This document shows, piece after piece, positions 3,029-60,852 of a stretch of DNA of 64,000 bases. Numbering within the stretch: the first letter of the stretch is position 1; each line of letters opens with the position of its first letter. Location: positions 72,932-136,931 of the forward strand of contig CAZPGN010000001.1 in NCBI GenBank assembly GCA_964586635.1, written 5' to 3'. The stretch is from an uncultured Candidatus Saccharibacteria bacterium. GTDB taxonomy: Bacteria > Patescibacteriota > Minisyncoccia > Phycocordibacterales > CAZPGN01. The position numbers were made by a program, and so were the translations under genes. The notes beneath the pieces were generated by a model. It saw nothing but the letters and a program-made list of their open reading frames with translations. It was not told where the DNA came from and did no database searches.

Positions 3029-3051
3029 ATGAAGGCTCCTGACCCCTTCAC
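3029..3051 (-). repeat. REP-like hairpin repeat copy (ATGAAGGCTCCTGACCCCTTCAc); overlaps the gnd stop codon and acts as a terminator-like hairpin plus T-run on the minus strand
   Basis: Stem GAAGG/CCTTC with 9-nt loop CTCCTGACC. The minus-strand reading GAAGGGGTCAGGAGCCTTCATTTT is followed by a T run. An identical 23-mer occurs at four more sites in the window. Confidence 0.8.
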
Positions 3052-3944
3052 CCCTGGATACTGTGCCCTCCGAACATATTCCGCAAGGCCGAAATCACCC
3101 TACCAGTGAAGCTGGGTCTCTCCGCAGATCGAAGGCGGAAATTGAAAGATTCTTCGATAACGGGAACAGGGACGCCAAGCTCCCTCGCTGTCTCAACTGT
3201 CCACTGACCCTCTCCAGTGTGAGCGACGGAGCCGGAAACACCCTCAAGTTCAACTCCGAATGATCGAAATGCGTCACCAAGCCAGCCAATGAGGCGGGAT
3301 TCAACTATGCTCCCGTGGTTGTAGACGCTCGCAACAGTGTTGAGGTCTACGCTGAAGGGTGCCCTCTTCAGAACTTCCATTCCCTCGGCAATCGCTTGCA
3401 TCATCCCATATTCGATACCGTTGTGAACCATCTTCACGAAATGCCCCGCACCCGATGGCCCCATATACCCATATCCATTTGGAAGCGCGAGGTCACGGAA
3501 CAAGTTCTCATGTCGCTCGAATACCTCGTGTGCGCCTCCAATCATCATGCATGCTCCATTCCTCGCCGCCAACACGCCGCCAGAGACACCGATATCAAGA
3601 TACTCCACCCCCTTGTCCGCCGCGTCTTTCGCGCGACGCATAGAATCCTTGAAGAAGGAGTTACCGCCGTCGATGACCATATCGCCGCCCTGAAGGAGGG
3701 GTAAGAGTTCAGAAAAAACACTACCAACGGCGGCATTTGGCACCATAACCCACACAAGACGAGGAGCGGCCAAGGAAGCGACGAGGTCGACGATATTAGC
3801 CGTGCCTTTTATGCCGACTACATTCGCAACAGCTTTCACCGATTCCGTATTCTTGTCTGTTGCCACAACTTCGTATCCCTTTTCCTGCAAACGAAGCACC
3901 ATGTTGTGTCCCATTTTCCCTAGTCCGATATAGCCGATCTGCAT
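3048..3944 (-). CDS. gnd: 6-phosphogluconate dehydrogenase (decarboxylating), short NAD(P)-binding form
   Basis: N-terminus MQIGYIGLGKMGHNMVLRL is a Rossmann GxGxxG motif. 298 aa, typical of the short Gnd/YqeC-like 6PGDH family. Confidence 0.8.
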   Translation of the reverse strand: MQIGYIGLGKMGHNMVLRLQEKGYEVVATDKNTESVKAVANVVGIKGTANIVDLVASLAAPRLVWVMVPNAAVGSVFSELLPLLQGGDMVIDGGNSFFKDSMRRAKDAADKGVEYLDIGVSGGVLAARNGACMMIGGAHEVFERHENLFRDLALPNGYGYMGPSGAGHFVKMVHNGIEYGMMQAIAEGMEVLKRAPFSVDLNTVASVYNHGSIVESRLIGWLGDAFRSFGVELEGVSGSVAHTGEGQWTVETARELGVPVPVIEESFNFRLRSAERPSFTGRVISALRNMFGGHSIQG

Positions 3945-5456: not shown

Positions 5457-7463
5457 CTATCGACGCCGAACAGGATTGCAATCGTCGCAAATACCTATCT
5501 CTCGAATCCGATCGAGATACCCGAGCACTGTCAATACAAACTCGGCATGACTCCATGCGAGAGGGGTCGCAGACGCAGGAGACCCGTCGCCCGCATGGAC
5601 CTGCTCCGGAAAAACCCCAGACGGAAGAGCCCTATCGCAGACCCATGAGAGCAATTCCCGCACCTTTTTGAAATCGCGTTCCTTCGATGCAATGCGCGCA
5701 TAATATTGGGCAAGCCAGAGAGAAGTAATGATCCATGGATTACCTGGGACACTCCCACTGCGGCAAGCATCATCCACGCAGTAATACCGGTCGCCCGCGT
5801 ACCGCGCAATGCCCCCAACACCGCGAACACTTAGACTTCCTTCAGCATTTTGCATTGCCCGCCTCACGCGCGGGTCCTCCGGTGGCAAAACTTCAAATCG
5901 CACAATGCTTGCAATACTGCTTAGGTCAAGCGTCTGGTCTGGAATCAGGTTCCCTGCCTTATTCCACTTAACCATCTTGTAGAAATTACCTGTTTTTTCG
6001 TCATAAAGATACCGCAATAACGCTCGCCGCATCTCTTCTGCAGTATGCAGATAATTCTGTTTGCTCAATTCCTTCCCAAGCAGTGCGGCAAACTTCGCCG
6101 CGGCTATAAGCGCCCCGTAGACACAAGCGGCGGTGTAAGTATGAATGCCGAACTTCTCTTCCCAGAGGTCATAGCTTTGCTTTGGGAGACCGGTGTAGGG
6201 GTCACGATAACCCATTAGAAAATTGGCTATTTTCTTAATGAACGGATTATAGAGCCGTTCGACAAACTCGAGATCTTTTGTCAGCTCATAGTGCTTCCAC
6301 AGCGCCACAAGCACGATCGCAGTCTCATCTTCTTGTATCGGGAGAGACACCTTGCCATCCTGAAGCCACGGGTGCCATGAACTACCGAGCGATTTATCCG
6401 GACGATATTTATGCATAAAGTAACCGCCATCGGTCAAAGTTTCGGCCGCAAATTCGAAGTAGCGTCGCGCGACCGTGTTATCGCCTGCGGCATCAAGCGC
6501 CATCGCTGATATCGCCGCGTCCCGTGGCCACACATATGCATATGTGTCCTTCCCCCCTCCTTGGAACATGCTTGAGTCAGTCGATGCGATAATTCCACCA
6601 CCGTTATCGGCGTGCGCGCGAACAATGAGCATTGATTTTTTGAAAAGCGTATATACGCGATCTTCGAGCCCGTAGAGGCGGAATGGGTATCGATTAACCC
6701 ACGCTCGCCAAAAGTTGCCCGTGGTTTCCCGAAGATGTTCGGGTGTTTTTTCGAGCACATACGCATCCAATGCGCAGACATCTCTGGTGGATTTGGCTGC
6801 GATAATCCAATAATGCGCGTGCGCAGTCTTCTTCGCGGCAATGTTGAGGTGCACCGCTATTACAGAATCGGTCGGGCCATGTTCAACTAAATTGCGCGAG
6901 AGTATCCCATCCTCCGCGTCCCGAAAACTTCCTTCTTTCCCTTCTATGCCAAATACACCAGTTGTAAAATCATTGAAGCAGGCAACATCGGAAATTGCAT
7001 TCACCAGGAAAACTCGTTTGCCATTGTAATGGATGATCGCATGCACAAGCGGATCATAGTAAACTGTGTCGCCGCGATGTGATTCATATATCTCGAATTC
7101 TTGCCCAAAAAACAAGCGAACATGCCTATCCCGTCCGCTATGGTCAACGACTTCTACTGAACGCAGAAAAATATTCTCTTCATTGTAAACCGTGTCGCGG
7201 AATAGAAGAGATAGGCCGAATCCCGAATGAAATGCGCTAATGAGGCTTGCTAGAGCGTCAGGGGCGCTCTCGACGGAGATCTCCCATGACCCATCACCCA
7301 TCCACGAAAAGTTGCCTTCAACCCAAACCCCGACACGGTGAGGCAAATGACCTCCAACATGATTTTCGAGACCGACGAACGGAAAATAGAAATCTCGAAC
7401 GAGTCCTCGCGAATCGAGACCGACTGCAATATGACCATTTCCGAGAACAATGGAGCGCGGCAT
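5457..7463 (-). CDS. glycoside hydrolase family 15 (glucoamylase / glucodextranase-like)
   Basis: 668 aa. It has an N-terminal beta-sandwich region plus a C-terminal (alpha/alpha)6 barrel-like region with WPRD/WEE-type motifs (YAYVWPRDAAI, DLWEEKFGIHTYT) typical of GH15. Confidence 0.65.
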   Translation of the reverse strand: MPRSIVLGNGHIAVGLDSRGLVRDFYFPFVGLENHVGGHLPHRVGVWVEGNFSWMGDGSWEISVESAPDALASLISAFHSGFGLSLLFRDTVYNEENIFLRSVEVVDHSGRDRHVRLFFGQEFEIYESHRGDTVYYDPLVHAIIHYNGKRVFLVNAISDVACFNDFTTGVFGIEGKEGSFRDAEDGILSRNLVEHGPTDSVIAVHLNIAAKKTAHAHYWIIAAKSTRDVCALDAYVLEKTPEHLRETTGNFWRAWVNRYPFRLYGLEDRVYTLFKKSMLIVRAHADNGGGIIASTDSSMFQGGGKDTYAYVWPRDAAISAMALDAAGDNTVARRYFEFAAETLTDGGYFMHKYRPDKSLGSSWHPWLQDGKVSLPIQEDETAIVLVALWKHYELTKDLEFVERLYNPFIKKIANFLMGYRDPYTGLPKQSYDLWEEKFGIHTYTAACVYGALIAAAKFAALLGKELSKQNYLHTAEEMRRALLRYLYDEKTGNFYKMVKWNKAGNLIPDQTLDLSSIASIVRFEVLPPEDPRVRRAMQNAEGSLSVRGVGGIARYAGDRYYCVDDACRSGSVPGNPWIITSLWLAQYYARIASKERDFKKVRELLSWVCDRALPSGVFPEQVHAGDGSPASATPLAWSHAEFVLTVLGYLDRIREIGICDDCNPVRRR

Positions 7464-7493
7464 GGGATCGGCGCGGCGGTTGCGCCACTTTCG

Positions 7494-7889
7494 TTATGCG
7501 TAAGTTAGTAGTTCATCGATTATCGATACGGCATCTTCCCGGTGCATAGCGCCTGCAAGAGCAAAAGCGCCGCCGAGATCATCTAATACATCGCGCACCC
7601 AATTCGCAAAATCATTGCGACCGCTTGTATGATGCAGATACTGTTCGTCACTCATTCTCTGCATGGCATCACGCAAATCGATAAGCGTACACACCACCGG
7701 GCCGTTGTTCACCCAAAAGCAATGCACTCCGTGAGCGACTGTCCTCGCGGCATTCGGACCCGCACTTAACATCGCAGACACAGTCTCATTCTCTTTCTTT
7801 TTTTGGCGCGGTTTTGGCGGGGTGCGCAATTTTGCCGCCTTCTTCTTGACGGCAGTTTTTGTTGACGCAGACAATGTTTTTCGAACCAT
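7494..7889 (-). CDS. hypothetical protein with a lysine-rich, histone-tail-like N-terminus
   Basis: 131-aa ORF. The N-terminal 45 residues are K/A/P-rich (KKKAAKLRTPPKPRQKKK) and the C-terminal domain is globular. No family recognised. Confidence 0.4.
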   Translation of the reverse strand: MVRKTLSASTKTAVKKKAAKLRTPPKPRQKKKENETVSAMLSAGPNAARTVAHGVHCFWVNNGPVVCTLIDLRDAMQRMSDEQYLHHTSGRNDFANWVRDVLDDLGGAFALAGAMHREDAVSIIDELLTYA

Positions 7890-7925
7890 AAGTATCTCGA
7901 ACTTGATTAACTACTAATCTGACTT

Positions 7926-15499: not shown

Positions 15500-15534
15500 G
15501 TCAAACTTCAGATATGCGGATACGTTGTGTCGGG

Positions 15535-15557
15535 TCAAAGGTGTCAGGAACCTTTGA
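15535..15557. repeat. degenerate REP-like hairpin (TCAAAGGTGTCAGGAACCTTTGA) near the right end of the island
   Basis: Stem TCAAAGG/CCTTTGA. The loop TGTCAGGAA resembles the loop GGTCAGGAG of the canonical repeat. Confidence 0.3.
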
Positions 15558-15893
15558 CCAATAATGTTTAGTTCGTAATGCAATCAATAGTATAGCACTT
15601 AAGAAAAAAGAAAGCCTCGCGGATGCGAGGCGATCGATGAATCTCGGCGCATAAAACTGAAACCAAGGAGGTGAAACTAGTCTGCAGCGATTGAAGCGCC
15701 GAGAACTAAATGAACTAATTCGAGATTTTAATGCGAGGGCAATTAGCTTTCGGAAAACTGATTCTCACTGTAAAACTCTGCCCTCGCACTAGTAGTTTAG
15801 CATGGGATATCGAGCAGTCAATTACATTGCAATGTGAACAATAATGCGTAGAATGAAATCGGTACTGAACATTCAACCACGCGAGGAGGATGT

Positions 15894-34869: not shown

Positions 34870-34892
34870 ATGAAGGCTCCTGACCCCTTCAT
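34870..34892 (-). repeat. REP-like hairpin repeat copy (ATGAAGGCTCCTGACCCCTTCAT)
   Basis: Identical 23-mer. The minus-strand reading GAAGGGGTCAGGAGCCTTCATTTTCT is followed by a T run and lies downstream of tRNA-Tyr on the minus strand. Confidence 0.8.
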
Positions 34893-42450: not shown

Positions 42451-42473
42451 ATGAAGGGGTCAGGAGCCTTCAT
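42451..42473 (+). repeat. REP-like hairpin repeat copy (ATGAAGGGGTCAGGAGCCTTCAT) followed by TTTTG; terminator-like, after the tRNA-Leu(TAA)
   Basis: Plus-orientation copy of the 23-mer; …CCTTCATTTTGTC. Confidence 0.8.
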
Positions 42474-42919: not shown

Positions 42920-45900
42920 CTATTGACCGAGTCTCACCTGCACCTGCTTTTGCAGATTCTCGATAAGTTTCTGGAGATCCTTCACTTGCTTCTCTAGTTC
43001 TGCCTCTGTAGATACGGACGAAGCTGTGGGTGCTCCAAGTTCTCCAAGTTTGGCGCGGGTCATGGGACCCACGAAGCCGTAGCCAGGATCGCTCGGCTTG
43101 GCTAGGTTGTATTTCTCTTGGAACTTACCGATGGCTTTCTGTGTAAGTGTTCCGAGGAACTCCGTCTCGCTGCCGGGTGATCCTGGACCAGTGTTTGCGA
43201 TCTTCGTGTCGGGATCGTTGTTCAAGAGCTGTTGGAGGCGCTTGACATCTTCGCCGCGGGTGCCGATGTCAAGCGAACGGGTGAAGGCCGCAGAGACCGA
43301 TGCCGGAGTTGCTGGTACTGCCGGGGAAACTCCGACAGAGGATACCTCCTGGAGCTTGGCGCGGGTCTTAGGACCGAGAACGCCGAAGCCAGTGGTTTCC
43401 TCGCTACCAGAAGAGATGATGCCGTGCTTCTTCTGGAATTTTTGGAGTGCTAATTTCGTGAGCAGGCCGAAGAAGTCCGTTTCGTTGTCGGGTGACCCCG
43501 GACCAGTATCCGATATTTTCGTATCGGGATCGCTGTTTAGAATCTGCTGGAGGCGCTTGACATCATCGCTTCTTGATCCCGTTTTAAGCACGCGGGTGAA
43601 GACTGGGGAAACCGATATTGCGGTAATGGAAGGGGTTGCAGGAGGGTTCGGTAGGGTTGCCGCAGATACAGATGCGCCCTGCGATGCGGATGCTGGAGCG
43701 GAAATTGCGGGAGTCTTCGACAGAACATGGTCGGAAACAGAACCGCCAAGGTATGACGGCGCCGAACCCCCGCCGCCGCCGCCCCCTCCGCCGCCAAGCA
43801 CATTGACTTTCGCGGAAACGGCACTCGAGGCCGCCGATTCTACAGAACCGCTCTCCTTTGAGGCCGACACTTTGTAGTAGTATGTGGTGCCGTTAGTTAC
43901 CGCTGTATCCGTATAGTTCGTAACATTGCCTGGGACATTCAGAAGCGGGAACGAGCCCGTATCGCTCGTATCGCGATATATGAAGTATCCGGTCGAGTCG
44001 TCAGATGAATTCCACGAGAGTGTAATGGTATTACTGCCCGGATTCCCTGCGGTCGCGGTCAAGTTCGCGGGCGCGGCGGGAGCGTCCGAGTTCGTCGCAG
44101 ACGAGAGCGCATAGAGCGAGAAGTGCGACCCTATCGAAGTAAATGCGACCGTTGAGACATTCGAAAGATTAGATGCCGGAGACGTAATGACATTTCCGCT
44201 CGAATCTTTGTAGGTCAAAACCGTCGAGAGTGATTCCCATTCTTTTTTGTCTTCGCTGTATGATACGACCTTCAATTTGTCTACTTCTGCCGAGGTATCC
44301 ACGTCGGAGAGCGCAAGTTCGGCTTTCGTATAAGTAAGCTCAATACTCGCTTTCTTGCCAGTCTGAAGATTTTTGACTTGAGAACTGCCAGAATATGCGT
44401 TAATGTCCTTCGCCTTTGAGGCCACTATGTTCACACTCACAGTGTTCGGGAAGTTGCTGGTTTCCTTGACGGTAAGATACGAGTTGCTGCCGGCCGAACC
44501 TAGTGTATTGGCATCTAGATCAACCTTGACCTTCGTTGCCGTATCGGAGATGCTTCCAGCGCTCGTGTCGGTAAATGTATTCGAGGTCATGAGGGTACTG
44601 GAAATCGAAGCCGTCGTTGTGAGCGCAACAGTTATAGACGAGGCAGAATTGGCGCCGATGGATATTGGGTTTGCCGCGGCCGCCGCTTCGACATATCCCT
44701 CCGCCGCCGCGAATACGCGCCATGTGCCTTCGCCAACGCTCAAGCGATAGGTGCCGTCAGTATCGGTCTTGGTCACAGCCTGACCGCCGCCGACGCGGAC
44801 AGCGCGCACGAAGGCATTGGCCGACAGAGAACCGCCCGCCGTTACCGTGCCGGAGATCGAGCGGGATGCGCTGGTCAGCACGAAATTTCTAGTGGTATTG
44901 CCTGAAATGGTTATCGAGGTCGGCGTGTCAATATAGCCCGGTTTAGAAACGATAACCTTGTAGGTTCCGTCGACAAGCGAGAGCCGATACGCTCCGGAGG
45001 TAGTCGCTTGCGTACCCGCGAATACGCCATTCGACTCGTTGACGAACGAAATCCATGCATCTGTAAGCTCGTTCCCTGATGTCGCTGCGGTATGATAGAC
45101 GGTGCCGGATACGACACTCAAGTTCGCACTGGCAGTATTAACCACGATTTTTATCGTTTCAGCGCCATTCACTTGCAAAACGCCGGAAAGTACCAGTGTA
45201 TTCGTACCATCATCGCTCGCCACAGAAATGTTCGACGACGGAACACCCTGAATGAAAGCTCGAATCGTAGTTGAGGCGCCATTCGCTATCTGAAGCGATG
45301 TCGAAGACGCGCTCGTTATTTCAACATGGTTCCCAAGCTGTGTACTCGTATCGAAGAGATCAATGAACGCCTTGGGAACTTCGAGCAGATTTCCGTTCGA
45401 GTCTTTTATGTTTATTGTGATAGTCCGCCTTGGCGCAACGCGGATGTTCTGCGTAGTGGAAGCTGTCAAGTCTATCGCGCCGATCGCCGCGCCGCTATTG
45501 CCAAGCGCGGCGATGCGCCCGTAACCTGGCTTGAATATGTCCGCGATCGAATATCCGGAACCAGAACGAACGCGCACCGAATATGCCCCATCGGAGCCAG
45601 AAACGGCCTCATTCGTGCCTGATGACCCGGAAACGCGAATGATGGCTCCCTCTATGCCCTCACCGGCAGTGAACGCGGCGTCGGAATTGCTGTCTTCGTA
45701 GATGTTTCCAGAAAGAATACTGAAGTTAAGCGTGGAGGCGGGTGCAAAATCAATGTTCTCCTGATTCGCCCCCGCGACAGTAACAGTCTGTTCAGTCATT
45801 TGCCCGAATCCTGGAATGAATACATTTACTTTCCATGCGCCGCTGTCAACATAAAGCGTGTATGTTCCGGCCGAAGAATCTGTGAATGAGTCTGCATGAC

Positions 45901-48900
45901 CAGGCCCATCTGTGCGGTAGGCAAACACAGGAGCGTTGCCGACCGCATTCGTGCCGTCCGTTACCCGGCCCGTAATGGTGTATCCAGGTTTTGTCATTTT
46001 AAGCACGAACGGATTTGCGCCGCTTACGCCAGTGGATGCCGAAGTTGAGCCGTCAATGAAGGCATTGCCGGACGAGTCTATGACAACGGAGACCTCACGC
46101 GACTGTCCGACTCCCGGAGCGAACGCACCGACATTGTACGAACCGGAAACAACGCGAATAGAAAATGTGCCATCGATTGCCGTTTGTCCGTGACTACCCA
46201 ACCCAAGGGAGGGCGAGTATGCGTACACGCCCGCATCGGAGACGGTGTTGCCGCTTCCGTCCTTAAGAATGCCTGTTATCGTCTTGTCCGCCACAGAAAT
46301 GGCAAATGTGTATTCTGTAACACGAGACCCGCCAACCGTTGCAATGCATGCAGTCGGACATCCCTTCACTTCGACCTCGATCGGTTTCGGCATTGACCAG
46401 GTGGTGCTAGGCGGCCCAGACATAAAGCCAGTATCGCCCTTCGGCATTGCCGGACCGAAACCGATACCCCAGAACCCGTTCACTTGCGGGAGCGGCATTG
46501 TAGTAACTTTTGTTGCGGAAAGAGCGGCTGTTCCTGGAGTAATCGTGCGCACCACGAATTCACCTGGGCCCCCCGCAAATACATCGAGCTGTTCAGTCGC
46601 TGTGAAAGTATTTAAGGCGGCTGTCATCTTGATATCTATGTTTACAGCAGATGAAGTCGCCGTAAGCGCGAAGTCTCTCGTGATAACGCTTGTCGAGGTT
46701 GCGAGCACCGGCGTCGGGTTGGGTTTGCCGAAGAAACCTGTGGTGGTGCCGGTAGGACTCACTATGGCATTAGTCGACAGCATGTATTCACCACCGCCAC
46801 CAAAGTTGTTCGACAAGAACTCGGTATTGATAGGAATATCGGTAAATTGGTACACGCCGCTCGCGTCAGTTGTACCGATTACTTGACCGATTTGAGGTGA
46901 AAACAGATTTATGTCAACACCTTGGAGGTTCGCGCCATTCCCAGATACTCTCCCACGAATGGTTGTCGTCGCTCCAGAAGAACCTATCCGTCCGTTTATA
47001 TAGATCGGGTTTGCGCTAAAGGTCTCAAGGAGTACTCCAGATGCGTTGCGTGATTTAATGTCTATCGAATAACCAGGGCTGTCGAATCCTTTCGGAATGG
47101 ATGGATTTTTTAGATCTACAACGCCGAACCGTAGGAAATCGTGCGCATCGCCCGATTCGCTGCGCGTCGCGGCATTAAGTGTGAGGGTTACGGTCTTCGC
47201 CGCAGCGTCGCGCGCGATAGCCGCGATGCCAACAGTCCCGGTGCCAGGCCCGTTGATGTCCTTATTTTGCTCATTCAGATATGGGTTGCGGGCTGATGAT
47301 GTCGCCGCACAGCAGATACCGAAATCTGCCGCGGAGGGGAAGGTGAGGACTATGGTGCCGTTTGCGGGTATTTGCCTTGAGATTGGAAGCTCGAAGATAT
47401 AGGTAGTCGAGGCGGAAACGAAATTGGACAAAGTTTGAATGTTCACCGGAGGAACGAAACCGATGCCGGAAGCGGAGAAATCTTTGTGCTCACCGAAGAC
47501 GCTTCCAGAAAAGGTGCCAGGCCCAAGAAGACCGCCACCCGAAGAAGAAAAGCCTGCGACAGTTCCAGTAAAGGTGCCCTCGGTCGTCATCGCATTACCG
47601 CTCATATCCTTGATATTGTTCGCGGTAACTGTGAAGGAAGTGCCGGCTGGAAGCTTTACGCCAGAGATTTGCGCAGTGCGCGTAGTCGAGTCATAGGTGA
47701 CAGAGTGCCCTGCCAGCGCGGAAAGCGTAATGCCTGAACCCGCAGTAACAGAGTAATTCGCAAGCGTCTTCGCATCACCCGAATTGACAGCCTCATTAAA
47801 GGAAATCGCTATGGAGAAATCGTTCGCGTTGGCAAAGAGAATTGAGGGCGGCTGTGTATCGGAATTCGTAGCTTCGACCGTCCAGTCCCGCGTTACCGTC
47901 CCCGCAAGAGGCGTCCCTGAAGTGTTCTTCAGTCCTCCCGCGCCTCCGACGAGCGTCAAACGCAACTGGGAGTTCGAAGGAAGCACATTGTTCGGAACAA
48001 AGTGGCCCTCTTGCGTAACGGGATTGTAATAGACAGTCCCTGGAATATTGGCGCCGCCAACGATGCTCATACTTACCGAGCCGGAGGTTGCCGTTGTCGG
48101 ATCTATTGTGTCATCAAAGACGAAGAGAAAATCATTCATGTTCGCCGCAATTGGTGCGCTTGCACTCGGTAGAACGGATTGCAGAATCGGCGCCGACGAA
48201 TCGGTAGAGCCCGAGGTCGTGAATTTCGAGATATATGCCGTTTGTGCGGCGACGCCGTTTGTATTCCGTACGCCGACCCCGACAGTGAGCGTATAAGTGC
48301 GATTCGCTCCGAGGGATGCAGGCATCATCGTAAGAAGATTCTTGCCGGTCGAAGTGCTCATAACGAAATTGGATAGTACCACCGCCGCGCCAAGGTCATT
48401 CACGAGCGTGATATTCGCGTTCGTGAGCGTGCTGACATTCATATTTGCCTGACTGAATTCTACTGACAACACGGAGAGATTCGTCGGCACATTCTGCGCA
48501 CTGTTGAATGGACTGGCGCCAAGCACCTGCGGGGGCACGAGATTCGTGGAGGTCTGGGTACTTCCGCCGGTCGTAAAGGTGATGGAATACGGCTGGCTTC
48601 CTGCCGTGAATCGGTTCTGGTCGAGTGGATTGCCGGAGATGTCGCGGATGGTGCTAGTGGCAATAAATGCGTAAATCGTACTGGGCGCAAGATTTGCAGA
48701 AAGGATGCATTTTGCCGATGGCTCAAATGCGCTCGGAAACGGATTATACTGTACGCTCCCGCAGAGGTTCGGGTTGGTCAGACTGCTTGCGTTGCGGAGA
48801 GTGACTGTCGTTGTTGCGGTGGCAGAGATAATAGTTCCGGTCGCGATCGTTTTGTTGAAATTGAACCCGATGTACTGCATATCGATTGGTACATTCGTGT

Positions 48901-50128
48901 TCTGGTCGGACGGGAACGACGCCGAAACCATCGGACTTTCGATGTCGAGAAAGCCGCCGCCGAAGGAGAACTCTTTTGGACTCATGCTGTTTTGCGGATA
49001 GACGCCGGCACTCGTTTGCAGAACAAAGTCGGCGCTATTGTCGCCAGTGTCGCCGCTATTGCCGCGAGTGCTTTCAAAACCTCCTTGACTCATAGAGGCG
49101 GCCGAGGCAGTCGAGGTAGATTTGCGCTCGTAACTATTGTCTACGGCGAGATCGGCGAGACGGGTACCTTCTGCGTTCCCCGCCGGCTGTGCCCCCCATG
49201 CGACTCGGTCAATAGATGTCGTCGTCGCGGACGATGTGGCAATACCAAGCGCGCCGTTTGCAATAAGCGTATTGCCGGATAGCGTCGAATACGCGGCGTC
49301 AAGAGCTGTTCCGGAAGAGGTGTAGTTGGTTTGTGAGCCTATAAGGAAAAAGCCATGCTTAGGTATTACGGTGCGGTAGTAGGTAAGAGTTTTCGAGCTC
49401 GCGATTCCGTCCGCATCATAGAGATGAGGGACCAATCCAGAACCCTGCAGATTAAACGCAAACTCGGAAGGGTTGTACAGCTCAAAGAATTCATCGCCCG
49501 CATTACCAGTCGCCCCGAGTCGAAACTCGCTTATCTTAATAGGCACGGTTTGCTCGAGAAGGATAGCGCGACTGCCAGTGAACTGCGTACCAATGGAACC
49601 TCCCGAAGTTGTAATCCAATTTGGCGATGTGGTTGCGTAAAATTGGTGGCCGTTCGTGAGACCAGCCGTAGATGTCGCGAGCGCGACTACAAAAAATTCC
49701 GTGGAGATAGACCCGACCGCGCCGTTGCCCGTGTCGACCGTAATAGTCTGCTCGGTGCTTGTTGCGGGGTCTATGACCATGTTGGCCGCGGTATTAAGAA
49801 GCGTGTCGGAATCGGGTTGGAAACCGAGATTCGCACCGGATTCTCTATAAAGCTGAAGTTTCCAGATCTCGCCATTCGTCAGTTTTGCGACATTCATCTG
49901 CGGAGTCGAAGTCGCCCGAATGGAAACTTTGACATTGGTGAGCGTGGCGCTTCCCGACGATTGAAGAAGACGAAACTGCAAGAGCGGTATGTACGCGCCG
50001 CCTCCAGCTCGCTGATTTTCAAAAAGAACATCGATGGGCGGAGCATTTTCGATAATGGCCGCTCTGGCAACACCCGGCACTGTAGATGCGACTGCGAATA
50101 AGACAAGAGCGATTGCTCGTAACCTCAT
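42920..50128 (-). CDS. giant secreted cell-surface protein (2402 aa): signal peptide, long array of beta-sandwich (Ig-like / CarboxypepD_reg-like) repeats, poly-Gly linker, two C-terminal peptidoglycan-binding (PG_binding_1-like) domains and a terminal coiled coil
   Basis: N-terminus MRLRAIALVLFAVASTVPGVARA. Recurrent SGTVT…G…TDGTYRL-type repeats. A GGGGGGGGGG run. Two copies of LKTGSRSDDVKRLQQ(I/L)LN.DPDTKI…TGPGSP…TDF(F/L)G.LT..A(L/I).KFQ.K. The C-terminus is EKQVKDLQKLIENLQKQVQ. Confidence 0.85.
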   Translation of the reverse strand: MRLRAIALVLFAVASTVPGVARAAIIENAPPIDVLFENQRAGGGAYIPLLQFRLLQSSGSATLTNVKVSIRATSTPQMNVAKLTNGEIWKLQLYRESGANLGFQPDSDTLLNTAANMVIDPATSTEQTITVDTGNGAVGSISTEFFVVALATSTAGLTNGHQFYATTSPNWITTSGGSIGTQFTGSRAILLEQTVPIKISEFRLGATGNAGDEFFELYNPSEFAFNLQGSGLVPHLYDADGIASSKTLTYYRTVIPKHGFFLIGSQTNYTSSGTALDAAYSTLSGNTLIANGALGIATSSATTTSIDRVAWGAQPAGNAEGTRLADLAVDNSYERKSTSTASAASMSQGGFESTRGNSGDTGDNSADFVLQTSAGVYPQNSMSPKEFSFGGGFLDIESPMVSASFPSDQNTNVPIDMQYIGFNFNKTIATGTIISATATTTVTLRNASSLTNPNLCGSVQYNPFPSAFEPSAKCILSANLAPSTIYAFIATSTIRDISGNPLDQNRFTAGSQPYSITFTTGGSTQTSTNLVPPQVLGASPFNSAQNVPTNLSVLSVEFSQANMNVSTLTNANITLVNDLGAAVVLSNFVMSTSTGKNLLTMMPASLGANRTYTLTVGVGVRNTNGVAAQTAYISKFTTSGSTDSSAPILQSVLPSASAPIAANMNDFLFVFDDTIDPTTATSGSVSMSIVGGANIPGTVYYNPVTQEGHFVPNNVLPSNSQLRLTLVGGAGGLKNTSGTPLAGTVTRDWTVEATNSDTQPPSILFANANDFSIAISFNEAVNSGDAKTLANYSVTAGSGITLSALAGHSVTYDSTTRTAQISGVKLPAGTSFTVTANNIKDMSGNAMTTEGTFTGTVAGFSSSGGGLLGPGTFSGSVFGEHKDFSASGIGFVPPVNIQTLSNFVSASTTYIFELPISRQIPANGTIVLTFPSAADFGICCAATSSARNPYLNEQNKDINGPGTGTVGIAAIARDAAAKTVTLTLNAATRSESGDAHDFLRFGVVDLKNPSIPKGFDSPGYSIDIKSRNASGVLLETFSANPIYINGRIGSSGATTTIRGRVSGNGANLQGVDINLFSPQIGQVIGTTDASGVYQFTDIPINTEFLSNNFGGGGEYMLSTNAIVSPTGTTTGFFGKPNPTPVLATSTSVITRDFALTATSSAVNIDIKMTAALNTFTATEQLDVFAGGPGEFVVRTITPGTAALSATKVTTMPLPQVNGFWGIGFGPAMPKGDTGFMSGPPSTTWSMPKPIEVEVKGCPTACIATVGGSRVTEYTFAISVADKTITGILKDGSGNTVSDAGVYAYSPSLGLGSHGQTAIDGTFSIRVVSGSYNVGAFAPGVGQSREVSVVIDSSGNAFIDGSTSASTGVSGANPFVLKMTKPGYTITGRVTDGTNAVGNAPVFAYRTDGPGHADSFTDSSAGTYTLYVDSGAWKVNVFIPGFGQMTEQTVTVAGANQENIDFAPASTLNFSILSGNIYEDSNSDAAFTAGEGIEGAIIRVSGSSGTNEAVSGSDGAYSVRVRSGSGYSIADIFKPGYGRIAALGNSGAAIGAIDLTASTTQNIRVAPRRTITINIKDSNGNLLEVPKAFIDLFDTSTQLGNHVEITSASSTSLQIANGASTTIRAFIQGVPSSNISVASDDGTNTLVLSGVLQVNGAETIKIVVNTASANLSVVSGTVYHTAATSGNELTDAWISFVNESNGVFAGTQATTSGAYRLSLVDGTYKVIVSKPGYIDTPTSITISGNTTRNFVLTSASRSISGTVTAGGSLSANAFVRAVRVGGGQAVTKTDTDGTYRLSVGEGTWRVFAAAEGYVEAAAAANPISIGANSASSITVALTTTASISSTLMTSNTFTDTSAGSISDTATKVKVDLDANTLGSAGSNSYLTVKETSNFPNTVSVNIVASKAKDINAYSGSSQVKNLQTGKKASIELTYTKAELALSDVDTSAEVDKLKVVSYSEDKKEWESLSTVLTYKDSSGNVITSPASNLSNVSTVAFTSIGSHFSLYALSSATNSDAPAAPANLTATAGNPGSNTITLSWNSSDDSTGYFIYRDTSDTGSFPLLNVPGNVTNYTDTAVTNGTTYYYKVSASKESGSVESAASSAVSAKVNVLGGGGGGGGGGSAPSYLGGSVSDHVLSKTPAISAPASASQGASVSAATLPNPPATPSITAISVSPVFTRVLKTGSRSDDVKRLQQILNSDPDTKISDTGPGSPDNETDFFGLLTKLALQKFQKKHGIISSGSEETTGFGVLGPKTRAKLQEVSSVGVSPAVPATPASVSAAFTRSLDIGTRGEDVKRLQQLLNNDPDTKIANTGPGSPGSETEFLGTLTQKAIGKFQEKYNLAKPSDPGYGFVGPMTRAKLGELGAPTASSVSTEAELEKQVKDLQKLIENLQKQVQVRLGQ

Positions 50129-52142: not shown

Positions 52143-52400
52143 TCAGAAACTACGCACTGTCGATATAATGAGATTCACAATGCCAAATGCAGAAACCATG
52201 ATCGCCATGCCGAGAACTCCCCATACCATGTGCTGTTTCCCCTTTGTCAATCTACTTTCATCTCCCGCGGCGCTTACAAACTCAAACACTCCCCAAAGGA
52301 AGAATATGAGGGCTAGGCCAAACAAGAGACGGATCAGCGGATTAATAATCGCGTCATTAATCTTGCCGATTACAGGAAGGGCTTGAGCAGAGCGATACAT
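52143..52400 (-). CDS. small 2-TM pilin-like protein (paralog 5; lacks the N-terminal signal region)
   Basis: Shares the family core I.P..xLA.I.F.WG…A.GD…WGV…S..G.VN with the four upstream paralogs. Architecture resembles TrbC/VirB2-type pilins. Confidence 0.4.
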   Translation of the reverse strand: MYRSAQALPVIGKINDAIINPLIRLLFGLALIFFLWGVFEFVSAAGDESRLTKGKQHMVWGVLGMAIMVSAFGIVNLIISTVRSF

Positions 52401-52417
52401 ACCATGTGTATATATGC

Positions 52418-52891
52418 TTAACGAAAGATACCTCCTATTTGCTCAAGGATATTGCCGATATTCCCGCCTGTGCCGCCCGCACCCTGGCCAGGAGCGGCCT
52501 GAACTCCGGGAGATTGCACTGCTGGGCCTTGGAATACACCTCCTCCCGCCGTAACGCCAAACGATCTGCCGACAAGCAATACAAGGCTGTAAACTGATAC
52601 GAGCACAAAGAGGGCAACGAGGCCCCAGGTCATTATCTCGCGCCCTTCAGCTCTATTGCTAGAGTCTTTTGCCGAGCTAATGTACTCAACGAGCCCCCAC
52701 ATGAAGTAAATCACCGCGATCGTAATAACGATAGGGATGATTATATTGAGGATGCTCTGCACCTGCACAAGTATCGTCTGAACAGTGCTCTGATCACGAG
52801 TCGCAGTTTGGGCAAAAACAAGCACGGGAGCAAAATACATGCCAATTGCCGCCAAAACGCGCGCATATACGCTGGTAATATAATTATGCAT
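52418..52891 (-). CDS. small secreted 2-TM pilin-like protein (paralog 4) with Gly/Gln-rich C-terminal tail
   Basis: Signal-like N-terminus, core IIIPIVITIAVIYFMWGLVEYISSAKDSSNRAEGREIMTWGLVALFVLVSVYSLV, then a low-complexity GGGVFQGPAVQSPGVQAAPGQGAGGTGG tail. The start is trimmed to MHNYIT. Confidence 0.45.
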   Translation of the reverse strand: MHNYITSVYARVLAAIGMYFAPVLVFAQTATRDQSTVQTILVQVQSILNIIIPIVITIAVIYFMWGLVEYISSAKDSSNRAEGREIMTWGLVALFVLVSVYSLVLLVGRSFGVTAGGGVFQGPAVQSPGVQAAPGQGAGGTGGNIGNILEQIGGIFR

Positions 52892-53002
52892 AATTATATG
52901 TTGTTGACTGTGGTATGTTACTTTTTTCGACCAAAAATATAACTGGCGACATACCGCGCCATCCCGTGCGCGCCGCTTCGGCATGCACGGGATGGCGCGC
53001 TA

Positions 53003-53467
53003 CTAGAAGCCAAAAAGTCCTCGCAGGGCTTCGCCAAAAAGCTGTTGGGATGATCTGATGGGCGAAGTCTGGCTTCCTCTAGAACTGGGTTGAGTAGCGG
53101 AGAAGCTACCCGATGAACTCCCGGCAAATCGCAGTTGCGGCACATTAGGCTGGGTATTCTCAAGATCGAGTGTCCGAGCAACAACATTAACGAGACCATA
53201 GACCGATGTCATTACAAAAAGCGCTATCACTCCCCAAATCATTATTTGTCTCCCCTCCTGCTTCGCATCTCCCGCGCCCTTTATGTATTGGGCAACTCCC
53301 CACATGAAATATATAAGCGCGAGCGCGATAATGACCGGAATGATACCGTTCAGCATCGAAAGCACTTTATCAATAAGTGTCCCGAGCGTCTGACCTTGCG
53401 CAAATGCGGTCCCAGACGGCAAAAGCGCGACAGATAGAAAAGCTATGACTTTATCTATTTTTTTCAT
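53003..53467 (-). CDS. small secreted 2-TM pilin-like protein (paralog 3) with Ser-rich C-terminal tail
   Basis: Signal peptide MKKIDKVIAFLSVALLPSGTAFAQG. Core GIIPVIIALALIYFMWGVAQYIKGAGDAKQEGRQIMIWGVIALFVMTSVYGLVNVV. Confidence 0.5.
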   Translation of the reverse strand: MKKIDKVIAFLSVALLPSGTAFAQGQTLGTLIDKVLSMLNGIIPVIIALALIYFMWGVAQYIKGAGDAKQEGRQIMIWGVIALFVMTSVYGLVNVVARTLDLENTQPNVPQLRFAGSSSGSFSATQPSSRGSQTSPIRSSQQLFGEALRGLFGF

Positions 53468-53468
53468 A

Positions 53469-53882
53469 TCAATTTAGGAGTCCTATTGTACTTTGAACGA
53501 CCCCAGCAATAATGTCAGCTCCGACTAAGATACCGATTCCGATGACCGTCCACAGAAGCGTCGCCTTCGCAGTCTCAAGCTGTTTCTCGTCGCCGCGTGC
53601 TGTGACAAAAAGGAACCCCGCGTACACAATAAAGAGAATGGCGACGGGAATAGCAAGCTGAACGAGCGCGTCAAGTATTTTTGCAATTAGCTGGTTGAGT
53701 GTGCTTACCTCCCCAAGCGGATTCGTGAGACCACCTCTTGTACCGCCAGAACTTGGTTGGAACACGCCCGTTCCTTGCGCTCTTGCGACACTCACCGAGA
53801 CAAGGTGAGCGCCTAGCACAAGCATAGCGCATATCGTGCGCGCCCCGTATCTCATTTTCTTAATTGTGTGGATAAATCGCAT
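53469..53882 (-). CDS. small secreted 2-TM pilin-like protein (paralog 2)
   Basis: Signal peptide, then LAIPVAILFIVYAGFLFVTARGDEKQLETAKATLLWTVIGIGILVGADIIAGVV. Same architecture as the neighbours. Confidence 0.5.
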   Translation of the reverse strand: MRFIHTIKKMRYGARTICAMLVLGAHLVSVSVARAQGTGVFQPSSGGTRGGLTNPLGEVSTLNQLIAKILDALVQLAIPVAILFIVYAGFLFVTARGDEKQLETAKATLLWTVIGIGILVGADIIAGVVQSTIGLLN

Positions 53883-53883
53883 A

Positions 53884-54285
53884 TTAGATTTCTACGCTAC
53901 CGCCAGTAAGGGCAAATAGGATAAACCGCACGATAATGTATGCCGCGGCCGCAAGCGCGATGCCGATCACCGTGTTCTTCATTATGTCTTTTGCGTCGCT
54001 TCGCTGACTTTCGTTCCCCGCAGAAGTTATAAAGAGAACTCCAGCGACACCAAACGAAAGCGTTCCGACCACTACGGCGAATGTCACAAAGAATTGCAAC
54101 ACGCGATCTGCAAGGCCTCCCTTTCTGATAAGGTCGTTGAAGGTACAGTTGTACACGCACGGCACTATTGGCTGTTCGCTCTGTGCATACGCGACTGGCG
54201 CGAGCGCCGCGGTTCCTCCGAGAACGGAAAGAACGGCAAACGTGACGAGACACAATATAGCTATTTTTTGTCCGGCTGTGCGCAT
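53884..54285 (-). CDS. small secreted 2-TM pilin-like protein (paralog 1)
   Basis: Signal peptide MRTAGQKIAILCLVTFAVLSVLGGTAALAPVAYAQ. Two hydrophobic helices separated by a short polar loop (TSAGNESQRSDAKD), as in TrbC/VirB2 pilins. Confidence 0.5.
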   Translation of the reverse strand: MRTAGQKIAILCLVTFAVLSVLGGTAALAPVAYAQSEQPIVPCVYNCTFNDLIRKGGLADRVLQFFVTFAVVVGTLSFGVAGVLFITSAGNESQRSDAKDIMKNTVIGIALAAAAYIIVRFILFALTGGSVEI

Positions 54286-54288
54286 AAG

Positions 54289-55602
54289 TTAAAATGGTGT
54301 TTGAAATAATTGCCCGAGCTGTTCCCTGGCGCGATTTATCGCTTCTAGCTCCCGAAGCCTGCCGCCGACTACGGCATCTATCATACCCGCGAACACCTGC
54401 CGCGAAGCAATCGGGAATGGATCGAGCCACCCTCTCGCGATGAGCCCTGAACGGCTGACCACATCAAGGAATGGGTCGGTGTTGCCTTGCGCAAGGGCAT
54501 CGCGGCGTGCAGATGCCAAGCGGAGGCCGTTTGCGGCAAGTTGCGAATTATTGCCCGATGCAAGCGCGCTGATAATTGAAAAAGCGGCGGCCGGGTTTTG
54601 CGACGCCCTGGTGAGCGCCAGTGCATAGACAGCGCCAAGTGTCGTTGTGCGCCTCTCTCGAATTTGCGGAACAATTGCGGCATCAAAATTGAGGTGCGGA
54701 TTGATCGCTCGAATAAGGGACTCGGAGCTCGCATAATCGAGATACAGCGCGACCTGATTTCCGGCAAATGCTTCCATCGCAGAGGCAAATCCTCGATTCC
54801 AGGTATAGAGACGGCTGTCAATGTTGCTGAACTGGGTATAGAACCGGAGTGCCGCATCTGCAGGAAGCAAAGGACTATCGTCAGGAGACAAACCAAATGC
54901 GAGATGCACGAGCTTGGTGGCAGTTCTTGCGACAATTTGATCCCCCGATTGCACTAGCAGAAGCGCGAGAATATCTGGAGCATTGGGAATGTTGAACGCA
55001 TCACCAAGCGCGATCGCGCTCTGGGTTATGATACCGCGATCGCCGCGCTTGGTAAGGCGGGGCGTATTCGCAACAACTTCCTCCCAGTGTTGGGGCGCCT
55101 TGGCAATGCCTGCGCTTGCAAACATATCTCGATTCCAATAGAGCACAACGGGGTCTATTAACCAGGGCAAACCGAGTACTCCCTCTGGCGCAAGAAACAG
55201 TTCTCCAGCCTCCGCAAATGTGTCTCGGAACGACCGCTCCGGCAAATTTTCATATGGAATAGGGACGATCTTATCTGCATGCCTTATAATGAGCGAATTT
55301 GGAAGAATGACGATATCGGGCCCGCGGCCGCTCGCGAGCGCGGCGACAAGCTCTTGGTCGAAGGTTATTGGATTTCGCTCGGAATAGCTAACGCGGAGAC
55401 CTCGGAACGCGCGCGCCGCCTCGGCCACAGCTTCTCCAACTCCCGCCTCGGGCAATGTCCCCCAAATGACCACGGAGCCAGAAAGTTCGGAAGAACCCCC
55501 ATTGCCGCCAAGCGAAGTCGCTGAAAACAAAACGAGTGCCACGACAGAGAGGAACATAAACACCCCAAGGACAACGAGCTGGAATGTAGTTAGATTCTTC
55601 AT
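54289..55602 (-). CDS. membrane-anchored extracellular solute-binding-protein-like protein (ABC SBP family 1-like)
   Basis: N-terminal TM, then GSVVIWGTLPEAGVGEAVAEAARAF…GPDIVILPNS. This resembles the SBP_bac_1 N-lobe (…TLTVW…F…PDVV). No permease or ATPase genes are adjacent. Confidence 0.45.
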   Translation of the reverse strand: MKNLTTFQLVVLGVFMFLSVVALVLFSATSLGGNGGSSELSGSVVIWGTLPEAGVGEAVAEAARAFRGLRVSYSERNPITFDQELVAALASGRGPDIVILPNSLIIRHADKIVPIPYENLPERSFRDTFAEAGELFLAPEGVLGLPWLIDPVVLYWNRDMFASAGIAKAPQHWEEVVANTPRLTKRGDRGIITQSAIALGDAFNIPNAPDILALLLVQSGDQIVARTATKLVHLAFGLSPDDSPLLPADAALRFYTQFSNIDSRLYTWNRGFASAMEAFAGNQVALYLDYASSESLIRAINPHLNFDAAIVPQIRERRTTTLGAVYALALTRASQNPAAAFSIISALASGNNSQLAANGLRLASARRDALAQGNTDPFLDVVSRSGLIARGWLDPFPIASRQVFAGMIDAVVGGRLRELEAINRAREQLGQLFQTPF

Positions 55603-60521: not shown

Positions 60522-60583
60522 ATCCAAACTGGTCTTTCCCGCAATCCCTGACATAACCACTTGCCAGGGATTCTTCCTTTGGG

Positions 60584-60791
60584 ATGAAGGGGTCAGGAGC
60601 CTTCATAATACCGCCTCGCGCAAAACATTTTCAAAAGCAAGATAATCAGCGTCAGTTTGGAAAATTGGTAGTCGTGCGTTAGCGCGATTGATGATATGGT
60701 AAACGACGTCTCCGACATCGGTGCGTGGTGGGCGTGGCATACTGTTCAGTGTAGCACAAAATGGATATGAAGGCTCCTGACCCCTTCATTC
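60584..60791. mobile_element. REPIN-like element: two copies of the 23-bp REP hairpin in inverted orientation (60584..60606 and 60769..60791) enclosing a truncated RAYT/IS200-like transposase remnant
   Basis: ATGAAGGGGTCAGGAGCCTTCAT at 60584 and its exact reverse complement at 60769. The 162-bp interior encodes the N-terminal 45 aa of a Y1 (HUH) transposase. Confidence 0.55.
60603..60740 (-). pseudogene. truncated REP-associated tyrosine transposase (RAYT) / IS200-IS605 TnpA-like N-terminal fragment (45 aa; HUH motif and catalytic Tyr missing)
   Basis: Hand translation of the minus strand gives MPRPPRTDVGDVVYHIINRANARLPIFQTDADYLAFENVLREAVL*. This matches the conserved N-terminus of COG1943/Y1_Tnp proteins (MPR.AR…HH...RG..R..IF.DD.DY..FL). 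The stop lies inside the flanking REP hairpin. Confidence 0.5.
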
Positions 60792-60852
60792 CTAGCTTGC
60801 ACAGATATGTCTTTTCGCGTATATTTGAGCGGCATTATCAATATAATCATTA

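Follow-up and report, generated by a model that had tools for sequence, protein, structure and literature searches.

A hairpin doublet from a Candidatus Vogelbacteria genome: a probable miniature element of the TIRYT type

Genes resembling those of REP-associated tyrosine transposases (RAYTs; REP, repetitive extragenic palindrome) and located between terminal inverted repeats that share the sequence GGGGWSAS were described by Di Nocera et al. in 2013 and named TIRtrons/TIRYTs; their repeats form moderately abundant families, found as singles and dimers (PMC3733652). TIRYTs were proposed by Quentin et al. in 2018 to be TnpA-Y1 subclass 2.1, which their Table 1 equates with Group 1 of Bertels. 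The traits of this subclass are an NH[YF]H or NHVH motif, a Y-x3-NP motif, a median length of 238 amino acids (aa) and a C-terminal extension, and no canonical REPs or REP-like secondary structures were reported for it (PMC6006769). According to Bertels et al. in 2017, Group 1 is the RAYT group that most resembles insertion sequences (ISs), with flanking 16-mers present in about 12 copies per replicon (PMC5581495). The locus presented here is a 209-bp hairpin doublet in a stretch of 64,000 nucleotides (nt), hereafter the window, from contig CAZPGN010000001.1 (positions 72,932 to 136,931). Its host is a bacterium of the candidate phyla radiation (CPR, or Patescibacteria) assigned to Candidatus Vogelbacteria, which agrees with the CPR-like genome proposed in a first-pass annotation of the bare sequence. 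The doublet is most likely a miniature, internally deleted element of the TIRYT or Group 1 RAYT type, with a Y1 (HUH) transposase, from a family that is abundant in Patescibacteria.

The doublet and its intact parent gene

The doublet consists of two inverted arms of 27 nt (window positions 60581-60607 and 60766-60792), which are 96% complementary and lie 158 nt apart. The exact 23-mer ATGAAGGGGTCAGGAGCCTTCAT is found at 60584-60606 on the plus strand and at 60767-60789 on the minus strand, with 160 nt between the copies. Every arm is a hairpin on its own, with a 7-bp stem (ATGAAGG paired with CCTTCAT), a 9-nt loop (GGTCAGGAG) and a fold energy as single-stranded DNA (ssDNA) of -4.4 to -5.1 kcal/mol, and no run of T follows either of them. 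The arms enclose a minus-strand open reading frame (ORF) at 60740..60603, which translates to the 45-aa peptide MPRPPRTDVGDVVYHIINRANARLPIFQTDADYLAFENVLREAVL, and ends in a TGA stop provided by bases 2-4 of the left hairpin in minus-strand reading. Both the inverted copies and the peptide are as the first-pass annotation had given them. The features of the doublet are the following:

60766..60792, minus strand: 5' (upstream) terminal hairpin in gene orientation, with the 23-mer ATGAAGGGGTCAGGAGCCTTCAT at 60789..60767 and the loop GGTCAGGAG
60741..60766, minus strand: 26-nt spacer from hairpin to ATG, with an extended -10-like motif, TGCTACACT, at 60756..60748
60603..60740, minus strand: 45-codon ORF, made of transposase codons 1-44, codon 225 (Leu) and TGA
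60581..60607, plus strand: 3' (downstream) terminal hairpin, inverted with respect to the upstream one, whose ATGAAGG arm supplies the TGA stop

On its own, the peptide has no match in Pfam or NCBIfam scans with hidden Markov models (HMMs), even at E 10. These scans included PF01797, with which the first-pass annotation had proposed to check the fragment. The missing match is explained by the peptide being too short, and its homology is shown via full-length relatives. An exact-protein look-up of the ORF returned no record. A word-indexed protein search with the peptide retrieved only the peptide itself and P0002, a 46-aa ORF with 70% identity. P0002 sits just 5' of a 224-aa gene in four metagenome contigs (L001-L004), and the same N-terminal sequence is present in both. 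The 224-aa protein of L001 scores 63.5 bits on PF01797 (cut-off 23) and 74.4 bits on NCBIfam REP_Tyr_transpos (cut-off 80), and the window peptide aligns with its N-terminus at 67% identity (E 3e-19).

A further protein search led to P0155, annotated as a transposase of Candidatus Vogelbacteria, and to its cluster mate P0248, which is intact, has 225 aa and scores 60.9 bits on PF01797 (cut-off 23). Residues 1-44 of P0248 are 100% identical to the window peptide, which bears out its earlier description as the N-terminus of a RAYT-like Y1 (HUH) tyrosine transposase, and the last residue of P0248 is Leu. The contig that carries P0248 (L093) comes from the same sample series as the window copy and matches the window DNA at 100% over 181 nt (its nt 1-181, hairpin and spacer included). 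Nucleotides 182-721 of L093 are missing from the window. These are exactly 540 nt, corresponding in frame to codons 45-224, and the deletion junction of the window copy lies between 60609 and 60608. Identity is otherwise 100% around this clean gap, with no substitutions relative to the intact copy. By this alignment the window copy is a P0248-type gene after one very recent in-frame deletion of 540 nt, and not a product of gradual decay; the word decayed, used for it in the first-pass annotation, hence does not hold.

In P0248, the HUH motif is NHWH at residues 59-62 (H60 and H62), and the tyrosine motif is YVERN at residues 122-126 (Y122). Both are invariant in intact relatives and both fall within the stretch deleted from the window, so the window copy has neither the HUH motif nor the catalytic tyrosine and its peptide stops inside the repeat ahead of the HUH motif, as had been noticed earlier. 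With the HUH histidines (H60, H62) and Tyr122 lost, no active enzyme can be made from the remnant.

Screening of metagenomes for the hairpin core yielded L007 (244 kb) and L008 (175 kb), long contigs that each carry an intact gene of 225 aa. Here, the exact hairpin of the window stands at both ends of the gene, as two direct copies upstream and one inverted copy downstream, and the ATGAAGG arm of the downstream hairpin gives the stop of the gene (GTA TGA AGG). The upstream hairpin of the doublet is identical to that 5' of the intact genes in L007/L008 and L092/L093 (L092 being a contig of a sister assembly presented below), and the arrangement TTA/GTA TGA AGG CTC CTG ACC is likewise found at the gene ends of L007, L092 and L093. 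The window aligns with the L007 element over the hairpin, the 26-nt spacer and 44 codons, and then jumps to the terminal TTATGAAGG. Synonymous divergence in the coding part (dS) is about 0.8, dN/dS is 0.13, and the spacer is identical at 17 of 26 positions, whereas the hairpin plus its GGG foot is identical at 26 of 26, which indicates the hairpin is constrained far more than neutral sequence. Intact cognate genes, which the first-pass annotation had proposed to look for in the whole genome, were found on other contigs (P0248/L093 and L007/L008). Among 185,579 species-representative genomes, the 21-mer hairpin core had 0 matches, hence the source species is absent from that set.

The family in Patescibacteria and its class

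Homologues of the 224/225-aa protein number at least 6,500-7,900, and the named matches are almost all from Patescibacteria. A scan of species-representative genomes for the family yielded at least 549 confirmed loci, 80 of which were fetched, and the family-wide counts given here refer to the full-length copies in those 80 loci and in metagenome loci L001-L011. Of 90 full-length copies, 80 have inverted flanking arms of at least 10 nt. In most cases, 16-40 nt separate the upstream arm from the ATG and the downstream arm covers the last 12-16 nt of the ORF. The 51 perfect upstream hairpins have 31 distinct stem sequences, with G(T/A)CAG in all loops, and the loop sequence in the family is GGTCAG or GGACAG. 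The hairpins keep their structure and loop across the family, and the stem covaries.

Within 35 nt of the ATG, 60 of 84 family members have the motif TGnTAnnnT, which in 48 of the 84 ends exactly 6 nt ahead of the start codon, versus 3% of control windows; in the window, TGCTACACT ends 7 nt ahead of the ATG. An extended -10-like motif that abuts the start codon suggests a leaderless or near-leaderless transposase mRNA. The proteins are 224-225 aa long, with about 95 residues past the core, and carry the tyrosine motif YVERNP or YVERNA and an HUH motif that is mostly NHFH, with NHWH in the lineage of the window.

Reduced copies are also found elsewhere in the family. In L005 (39-209), an inverted doublet surrounds a C-terminal remnant (residues 179-225, 72% identity), a mirror image of the window's, and in L006 (429-497) a hairpin pair has a spacer of only 25 nt and is REPIN-like, REPINs being inverted REP doublets. 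N-terminal partial copies lie beside intact genes in L001-L004 (aa 1-46), L041 (1-61), L091 (1-73) and L083 (1-87). With breaks at 61, 73 and 87, the deletion hot spot at codon 45/46 that the window and L001-L004 have in common was rejected as a family rule, and the 176-aa 'C-terminal fragments' P0114/P0115 were discarded as breakpoints because they are gene-calling effects. In L001 (113-490) and L003 (1-433), a 189-nt unit (hairpin, spacer and 46 codons) stands in tandem 5' of the intact gene. This duplication was seen in four independent assemblies, and in L003 the array comprises no fewer than two complete units and a portion of a third. Unequal crossover between the AAAATATGATAT repeats of L001 was rejected as its source, given a repeat spacing of 155 nt versus a duplication of 189 nt.

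A side observation concerns partial copies of the 5' half of the hairpin, which are stacked outside the element ends, with 72 such copies in 31 of about 80 loci (L067 9900-9990, L088 9780-9980, L014, L027, L032, L053, L001 1035-1123, L006 497-530 and L010 3540-3570) and none within the window. Counted from the G of GTCAG, their ends are bimodal, with 21 at +1 (just past the arm) and 32 at +4 to +6, and do not support a single sharp break point in the hairpin loop.

Close relatives of the CPR transposase outside this group, with about 50-55% identity and GGGGTCAGG hairpins, were noticed in Dethiosulfatarculus sandiegensis (L085), Nitrospirales (L059) and Planctomycetes (L087/L090), and L085 has three copies within 18 kb. 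Copies outside the CPR, and three in one of these loci, suggest horizontal spread and IS-like behaviour. A literature search for RAYT together with Patescibacteria found no relevant paper on the family in CPR.

By motif-level comparison, the element matches the TIRYT type (Group 1 RAYT, subclass 2.1). As in TIRtrons, a RAYT-like Y1 gene lies between terminal inverted repeats with GGGGWSAS, here GGGGTCAG. The spacing between repeat and gene is short and constant, the 3' repeat extends into the end of the gene, some repeats are self-complementary, and the repeat families are moderately abundant and comprise singles and dimers. At motif level the proteins look alike: their length is about 225-238 aa, the HUH motif reads NH(aromatic)H, the tyrosine motif Y-x3-N(P), and there is a C-terminal extension. 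IS-like character, most marked in this group among the RAYTs, is a further likeness. The published sets come from cultured Proteobacteria, Acidobacteria and similar bacteria, whereas the present family is from CPR/Patescibacteria. Subclass 2.1 also differs in that no REP-like structures were reported for it, while clear hairpins with covarying stems are present here, and in the HUH motif, which is NHWH in the lineage of the window; membership rests on motifs and not on an alignment to published TIRYTs.

The REPINs and REPtrons of Pseudomonas and E. coli (Bertels & Rainey 2011, PMC3116915; Ton-Hoang 2012; Messing 2012, PMC3479197) are similar to the locus in having a Y1 HUH gene between inverted palindromes of which the genome has further copies, inverted doublets, and a non-autonomous repeat served by an enzyme encoded elsewhere. 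They differ from it in several respects: the GTAG/GTGG guide tetranucleotide is missing here, copies probably number tens at most instead of hundreds, the doublet spacer is a gene remnant of 158 nt instead of a short one, the gene is probably not single-copy in this population, and the protein is under the equivalog cut-off. A replicating REPIN population was not found, as the window has only one doublet and the ORF cluster has n = 1. The hairpins were compared at their feet in all copies in the window, L005-L009, L092 and L093, and the GT[AG]G foot (criterion of PMC6006769 and PMC3733652) is missing from them, with flanks of GGG, GGA, CCG, AGA and similar. On the equivalog model NF047646 (REP_Tyr_transpos, cut-off 80), P0248 scores 53.9 bits and P0129 scores 56.4, both below the cut-off, although it is the best-scoring NCBIfam model for P0248. 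Hence, the REP/RAYT organisation proposed in the first-pass annotation stands as far as a gene between inverted repeats is concerned (80/90), but not with respect to the GT[AG]G foot and the score of 53.9 against 80.

PATEs of haloarchaea are deletion derivatives of IS200/IS605 elements that resemble miniature inverted-repeat transposable elements (MITEs). The doublet is like them in being a Y1-transposase element that is deleted internally and keeps both structured ends, and unlike them in that the enzyme subclass is another, the ends are inverted and not direct, and the mini-element was seen once. On the NCBIfam model transpos_IS200, scores are 17.9-24 bits versus a cut-off of 55, and among solved structures ISDra2 TnpA (2XM3) is the closest by sequence, although weakly so (E 0.002). 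With three or more different flanks in the population, the transposase gene is more IS-like than a single-copy domesticated RAYT.

Sister assemblies, solo hairpins and rival explanations

Contig L092 is JACOVY010000017.1 (contig 17) of GCA_016177055.1, a near-identical sister assembly. It is collinear with window 64000-60607 at 99.94% identity on the side of the Pth (peptidyl-tRNA hydrolase) and S1 genes. Its gene adjoining S1/Pth has a frameshifting deletion of 47 nt, and the left breakpoint, after GCGGTA, is the same as that of the 540-nt deletion in the window. At this place (L092 7330-7340, window 60607-60609), the intact sequence GGCGGTA/GGAC, with the slash marking the break, was seen to resemble the hairpin loop GGTCA/GGAG. 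The right flanks of the 3' hairpin are three different ones in the window, L092 and L093, and L092 runs into genes that are not in the window. The inner junction, from codon 44 through TTA TGA and the hairpin to the flank of a 286-aa ORF, is present at 100% in L094, which is contig 16 of GCA_016177055.1 and starts in the spacer at window 60749, and in L095-L097, three Logan assemblies from other runs. As it was assembled independently in these four other assemblies, the junction is not an artefact of the window's own assembly. L095-L097 begin at the 31-mer branch point of the junction, which implies reads with other continuations after GCGGTA coexist in those samples; by the same token, the intact and truncated forms coexist in the same samples.

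A transposase gene was also seen near a peptidyl-tRNA hydrolase gene in two more CPR genomes (L017 2097-3379 and L045 6869-8738). Including the neighbourhood in the window, this adjacency could be due to chance or to a preferred site. A comparison of synteny at the transposase locus across CPR gave no more than this peptidyl-tRNA hydrolase gene near the element in L017 and L045, too little for an argument.

Within the window, the 23-mer with at most one mismatch has five copies, versus 0 in 100 shuffles, and every copy of the hairpin has GGGGTCAG. Two of the copies form the doublet and three lie outside it (3029-3051 and 34870-34892 on the minus strand, 42451-42473 on the plus strand), so the hairpin is dispersed through the window as first described. 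The solo copies, together with a single hairpin of a second type, are:

42451..42473, plus strand: solo hairpin 10 nt after tRNA-Leu(taa), followed by TTTT
34870..34892, minus strand: solo hairpin 142 nt downstream of tRNA-Tyr on the same strand, with TTTT next, 57 nt ahead of the next minus-strand ORF
3029..3051, minus strand: solo hairpin with 1 mismatch (GTGAAGG...), overlapping the end of a 6-phosphogluconate-dehydrogenase-like gene, with TTTT next
15533..15559, plus strand: second-type single hairpin, GGTCAAAGGT-GTCAGGA-ACCTTTGACC, with the loop core of the first type and a different 10-bp stem

All three solo hairpins are thus downstream of a gene or tRNA, in sense orientation and followed by TTTT. 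Intrinsic terminators have a G+C-rich stem with a loop of 3-8 nt and a U run directly after it, and against this the solo hairpin has 7 pairs (3 of them G-C), a 9-nt loop and four T's. The copy at 42451, the one tested, was not called in a terminator scan, and the RNA fold z-scores of the three against shuffles are -1.4, +0.15 and +0.3, no better than shuffles. Co-option of the solo hairpins as terminators is, from these three cases, a possibility. The first-pass annotation had proposed that the hairpins were taken over as terminators: the terminator position with TTTT (3/3) supports this, but the takeover is not borne out, given the weak fold and the uncalled copy at 42451. The 6-phosphogluconate-dehydrogenase-like gene (3048..3944, minus strand), with a PGI-like gene next to it, has its TGA stop within the solo hairpin (3048-3051), and insertion of the hairpin may have reshaped its C-terminus.

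Other lineages of the transposase family (e.g., L015, L016, L064 and L075) have the core of the second-type hairpin, AAAGGTGTCAGGAACCTTT, as their end hairpin. The RNA fold of the window copy has -18.7 kcal/mol and z -3.7, and a cognate gene is absent from the window. Rfam gave no match between 60300 and 61000. Elsewhere in the window, a 2402-aa ORF (42920-50128, minus strand) was observed, with several consecutive small genes downstream (52400-54430, minus strand) that are T4SS_pilin/TrbC-like according to the Pfam pre-annotation of L094.

Several points weigh against the doublet being a mini-element of this family at this place. No intact transposase gene was found within the 64-kb window. 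The doublet was seen once (the P0001 cluster has n = 1), so the mini-element shows no sign of having moved, and hairpin density is low, with 5 in the 64-kb window, 2 in the 17.8 kb of L092 (gene flanks only) and 5 exact copies on the 244-kb contig. Binding and cleavage of the hairpins by the enzyme are presumed by analogy. The adjacency of the truncated copy to S1 is attested only by the window's own assembly. L092 and the window differ by 2 single-nucleotide polymorphisms (SNPs) in the 132-nt N-terminal part and by 0 in about 3,260 nt of the S1/Pth flank, and the metagenome-assembled genome GCA_016177055.1 holds both forms: contig 17 has S1, the hairpin and the gene with the 47-nt deletion, and contig 16 has the truncated copy from window 60749 on. 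Given both SNPs are in the N-terminal part and none in the flank, the window and L092 probably carry different copies and not alleles, and the S1-side join may be a real recombinant or a mis-join across a repeat of roughly 180 nt.

The last two observations support an explanation of the doublet as partly an assembly product, in which the contig was joined across the ~180-nt repeat of two copies (hairpin, spacer and 44 codons) and the truncated copy does not lie beside S1. We consider this possible but rather unlikely. Real recombination between copies would look alike, and the inner junction and left hairpin, confirmed in the four other assemblies, are untouched by it. The spacer is kept, moreover, and since a hairpin precedes the spacer in most family members, the doublet is very probably real whatever its outer flank. 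The existence of the truncated copy and of its downstream hairpin is unaffected by this matter. A different objection is that the 45-aa ORF is a functional small protein, for instance a truncated-transposase inhibitor of a dimeric Y1 enzyme, kept because it is useful. The deletion does preserve the reading frame exactly and has left the start codon, the promoter-like spacer and the stop codon undamaged, and N-terminal partial copies adjoin intact genes elsewhere (L001-L004, L091, L083 and L041). However, breakpoints vary by lineage (46, 61, 73 and 87), the partial copy of L001-L004 is accounted for by the 189-nt tandem duplication, and in L092 the sister allele has lost 47 nt with a shift of frame, which is what simple inactivation of the gene would produce. 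With a cluster of n = 1 and a fragment without sequence divergence for gauging selection, we regard a functional peptide as very unlikely.

Two other explanations keep a transposase origin and change its class. In a canonical REP/RAYT system, a single domesticated RAYT would have spread REPs or REPINs and then decayed, with the REPs now serving as intrinsic terminators. In its favour are the inverted palindromes on both sides of the gene, an arrangement known from REPtrons, the fact that REP_Tyr_transpos is the best NCBIfam model for the parent, and the placement of the three solo copies, all sense, downstream of a gene or tRNA and ahead of TTTT. Yet the hairpin foot has GGG or GGA and no GT[AG]G, 53.9 bits fall short of the 80-bit equivalog cut-off, copy number appears low, the gene has three or more different flanks, and not one substitution separates the remnant from the intact copy. 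Terminators of 7 pairs (3 G-C) with a 9-nt loop and four T's, one of them uncalled at 42451, with fold z-scores from -1.4 to +0.3 and with no T run at the doublet hairpins, add to these objections and leave this explanation improbable. Even less probable, and very unlikely in our view, is the remnant of an ordinary IS200/IS605 insertion sequence, that is, a PATE-like MITE, although the Pfam family is the same (PF01797), several flank contexts and partial copies amount to IS-like behaviour, and the nearest solved structure by sequence is that of ISDra2 TnpA (2XM3, E 0.002). The transpos_IS200 score of 17.9 is far from the cut-off of 55, the tyrosine motif YVERN(A/P) has the Y-x3-N signature of class 2 instead of the Y-x3-Q of IS200 (PMC6006769), the protein has 225 aa instead of about 150, the end hairpins are inverted copies of one another, and neither tnpB nor a second transposase-like ORF was found beside the gene in the loci examined.

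Proposed mechanism and significance

The miniature TIRYT-type element, the explanation we prefer, derives from the following layout. An intact element begins with a terminal hairpin of ~27 nt holding GGGGTCAG in its loop and continues with a 26-nt spacer that has an extended -10-like motif by the ATG and with the 225-codon gene, whose stop codon lies in a second, inverted hairpin copy at the far end. The window copy has lost codons 45-224 (540 nt) in frame and keeps both hairpins, the spacer and 44 codons. In IS608 and ISDra2, of the IS200/IS605 family, and with E. coli TnpA-REP, the enzyme binds ssDNA hairpins and cuts and rejoins DNA there. By analogy, the hairpins of the present family would be the ssDNA structures recognised by the enzyme, with cutting and rejoining at these places. 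Because both ends are kept in their native inverted arrangement, the remnant is a candidate non-autonomous element of the MITE or REPIN kind, which could be served in trans by an intact enzyme encoded at another locus of its genome or by other members of the population. The spacer motif may have promoter activity, and neighbouring genes may be affected by the element.

The ends of the half-hairpins, together with the similarity between the shared breakpoint GGCGGTA/GGA and the loop GGTCA/GGA, are a hint of breakage close to the loop. A stutter of stacked half-hairpins could also come from slippage of replication at hairpins. A joint reading in four parts can be put forward, which as a whole we hold to be doubtful: an active TIRYT family with proto-REP ends, loop-adjacent cutting, an explanation of the shared breakpoint, and raw material for terminators. 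In its first part, Patescibacteria may harbour a very large and active TIRYT family, and the window may catch the step from an autonomous element to a REPIN-like doublet, made by one in-frame deletion while the intact parent is still in the population. In the second, the cut may be made in or beside the loop (GGTCA/GG) and not at a GTAG-guided flank, which would explain the half-hairpin stacks. Such loop-adjacent cutting might also, in the third part, explain why two deletions start at GGCGGTA/GGA, a look-alike of the loop. In the fourth, solo hairpins with a T run after genes and tRNAs would be raw material for terminators in small genomes.

To our knowledge, REP/RAYT biology has been worked out almost entirely in Proteobacteria, and the origin of REPINs has been argued mostly from end products. 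Four related states are available here, of which the intact gene, the 47-nt deletion and the 540-nt in-frame deletion are in the same population and the tighter doublets are in relatives, and they constitute a concrete series for the transition from a transposase element to a REPIN. Mobile DNA is usually said to be scarce in CPR genomes. Group 1/TIRYT, the RAYT group studied least, is widespread in these bacteria, with thousands of homologues, conserved hairpin ends and a conserved promoter-like motif at the start codon. Knowledge of the enzyme class is unchanged by these results: the family is a known one, and the doublet and its relatives are a well-documented new occurrence of it and a useful test bed.

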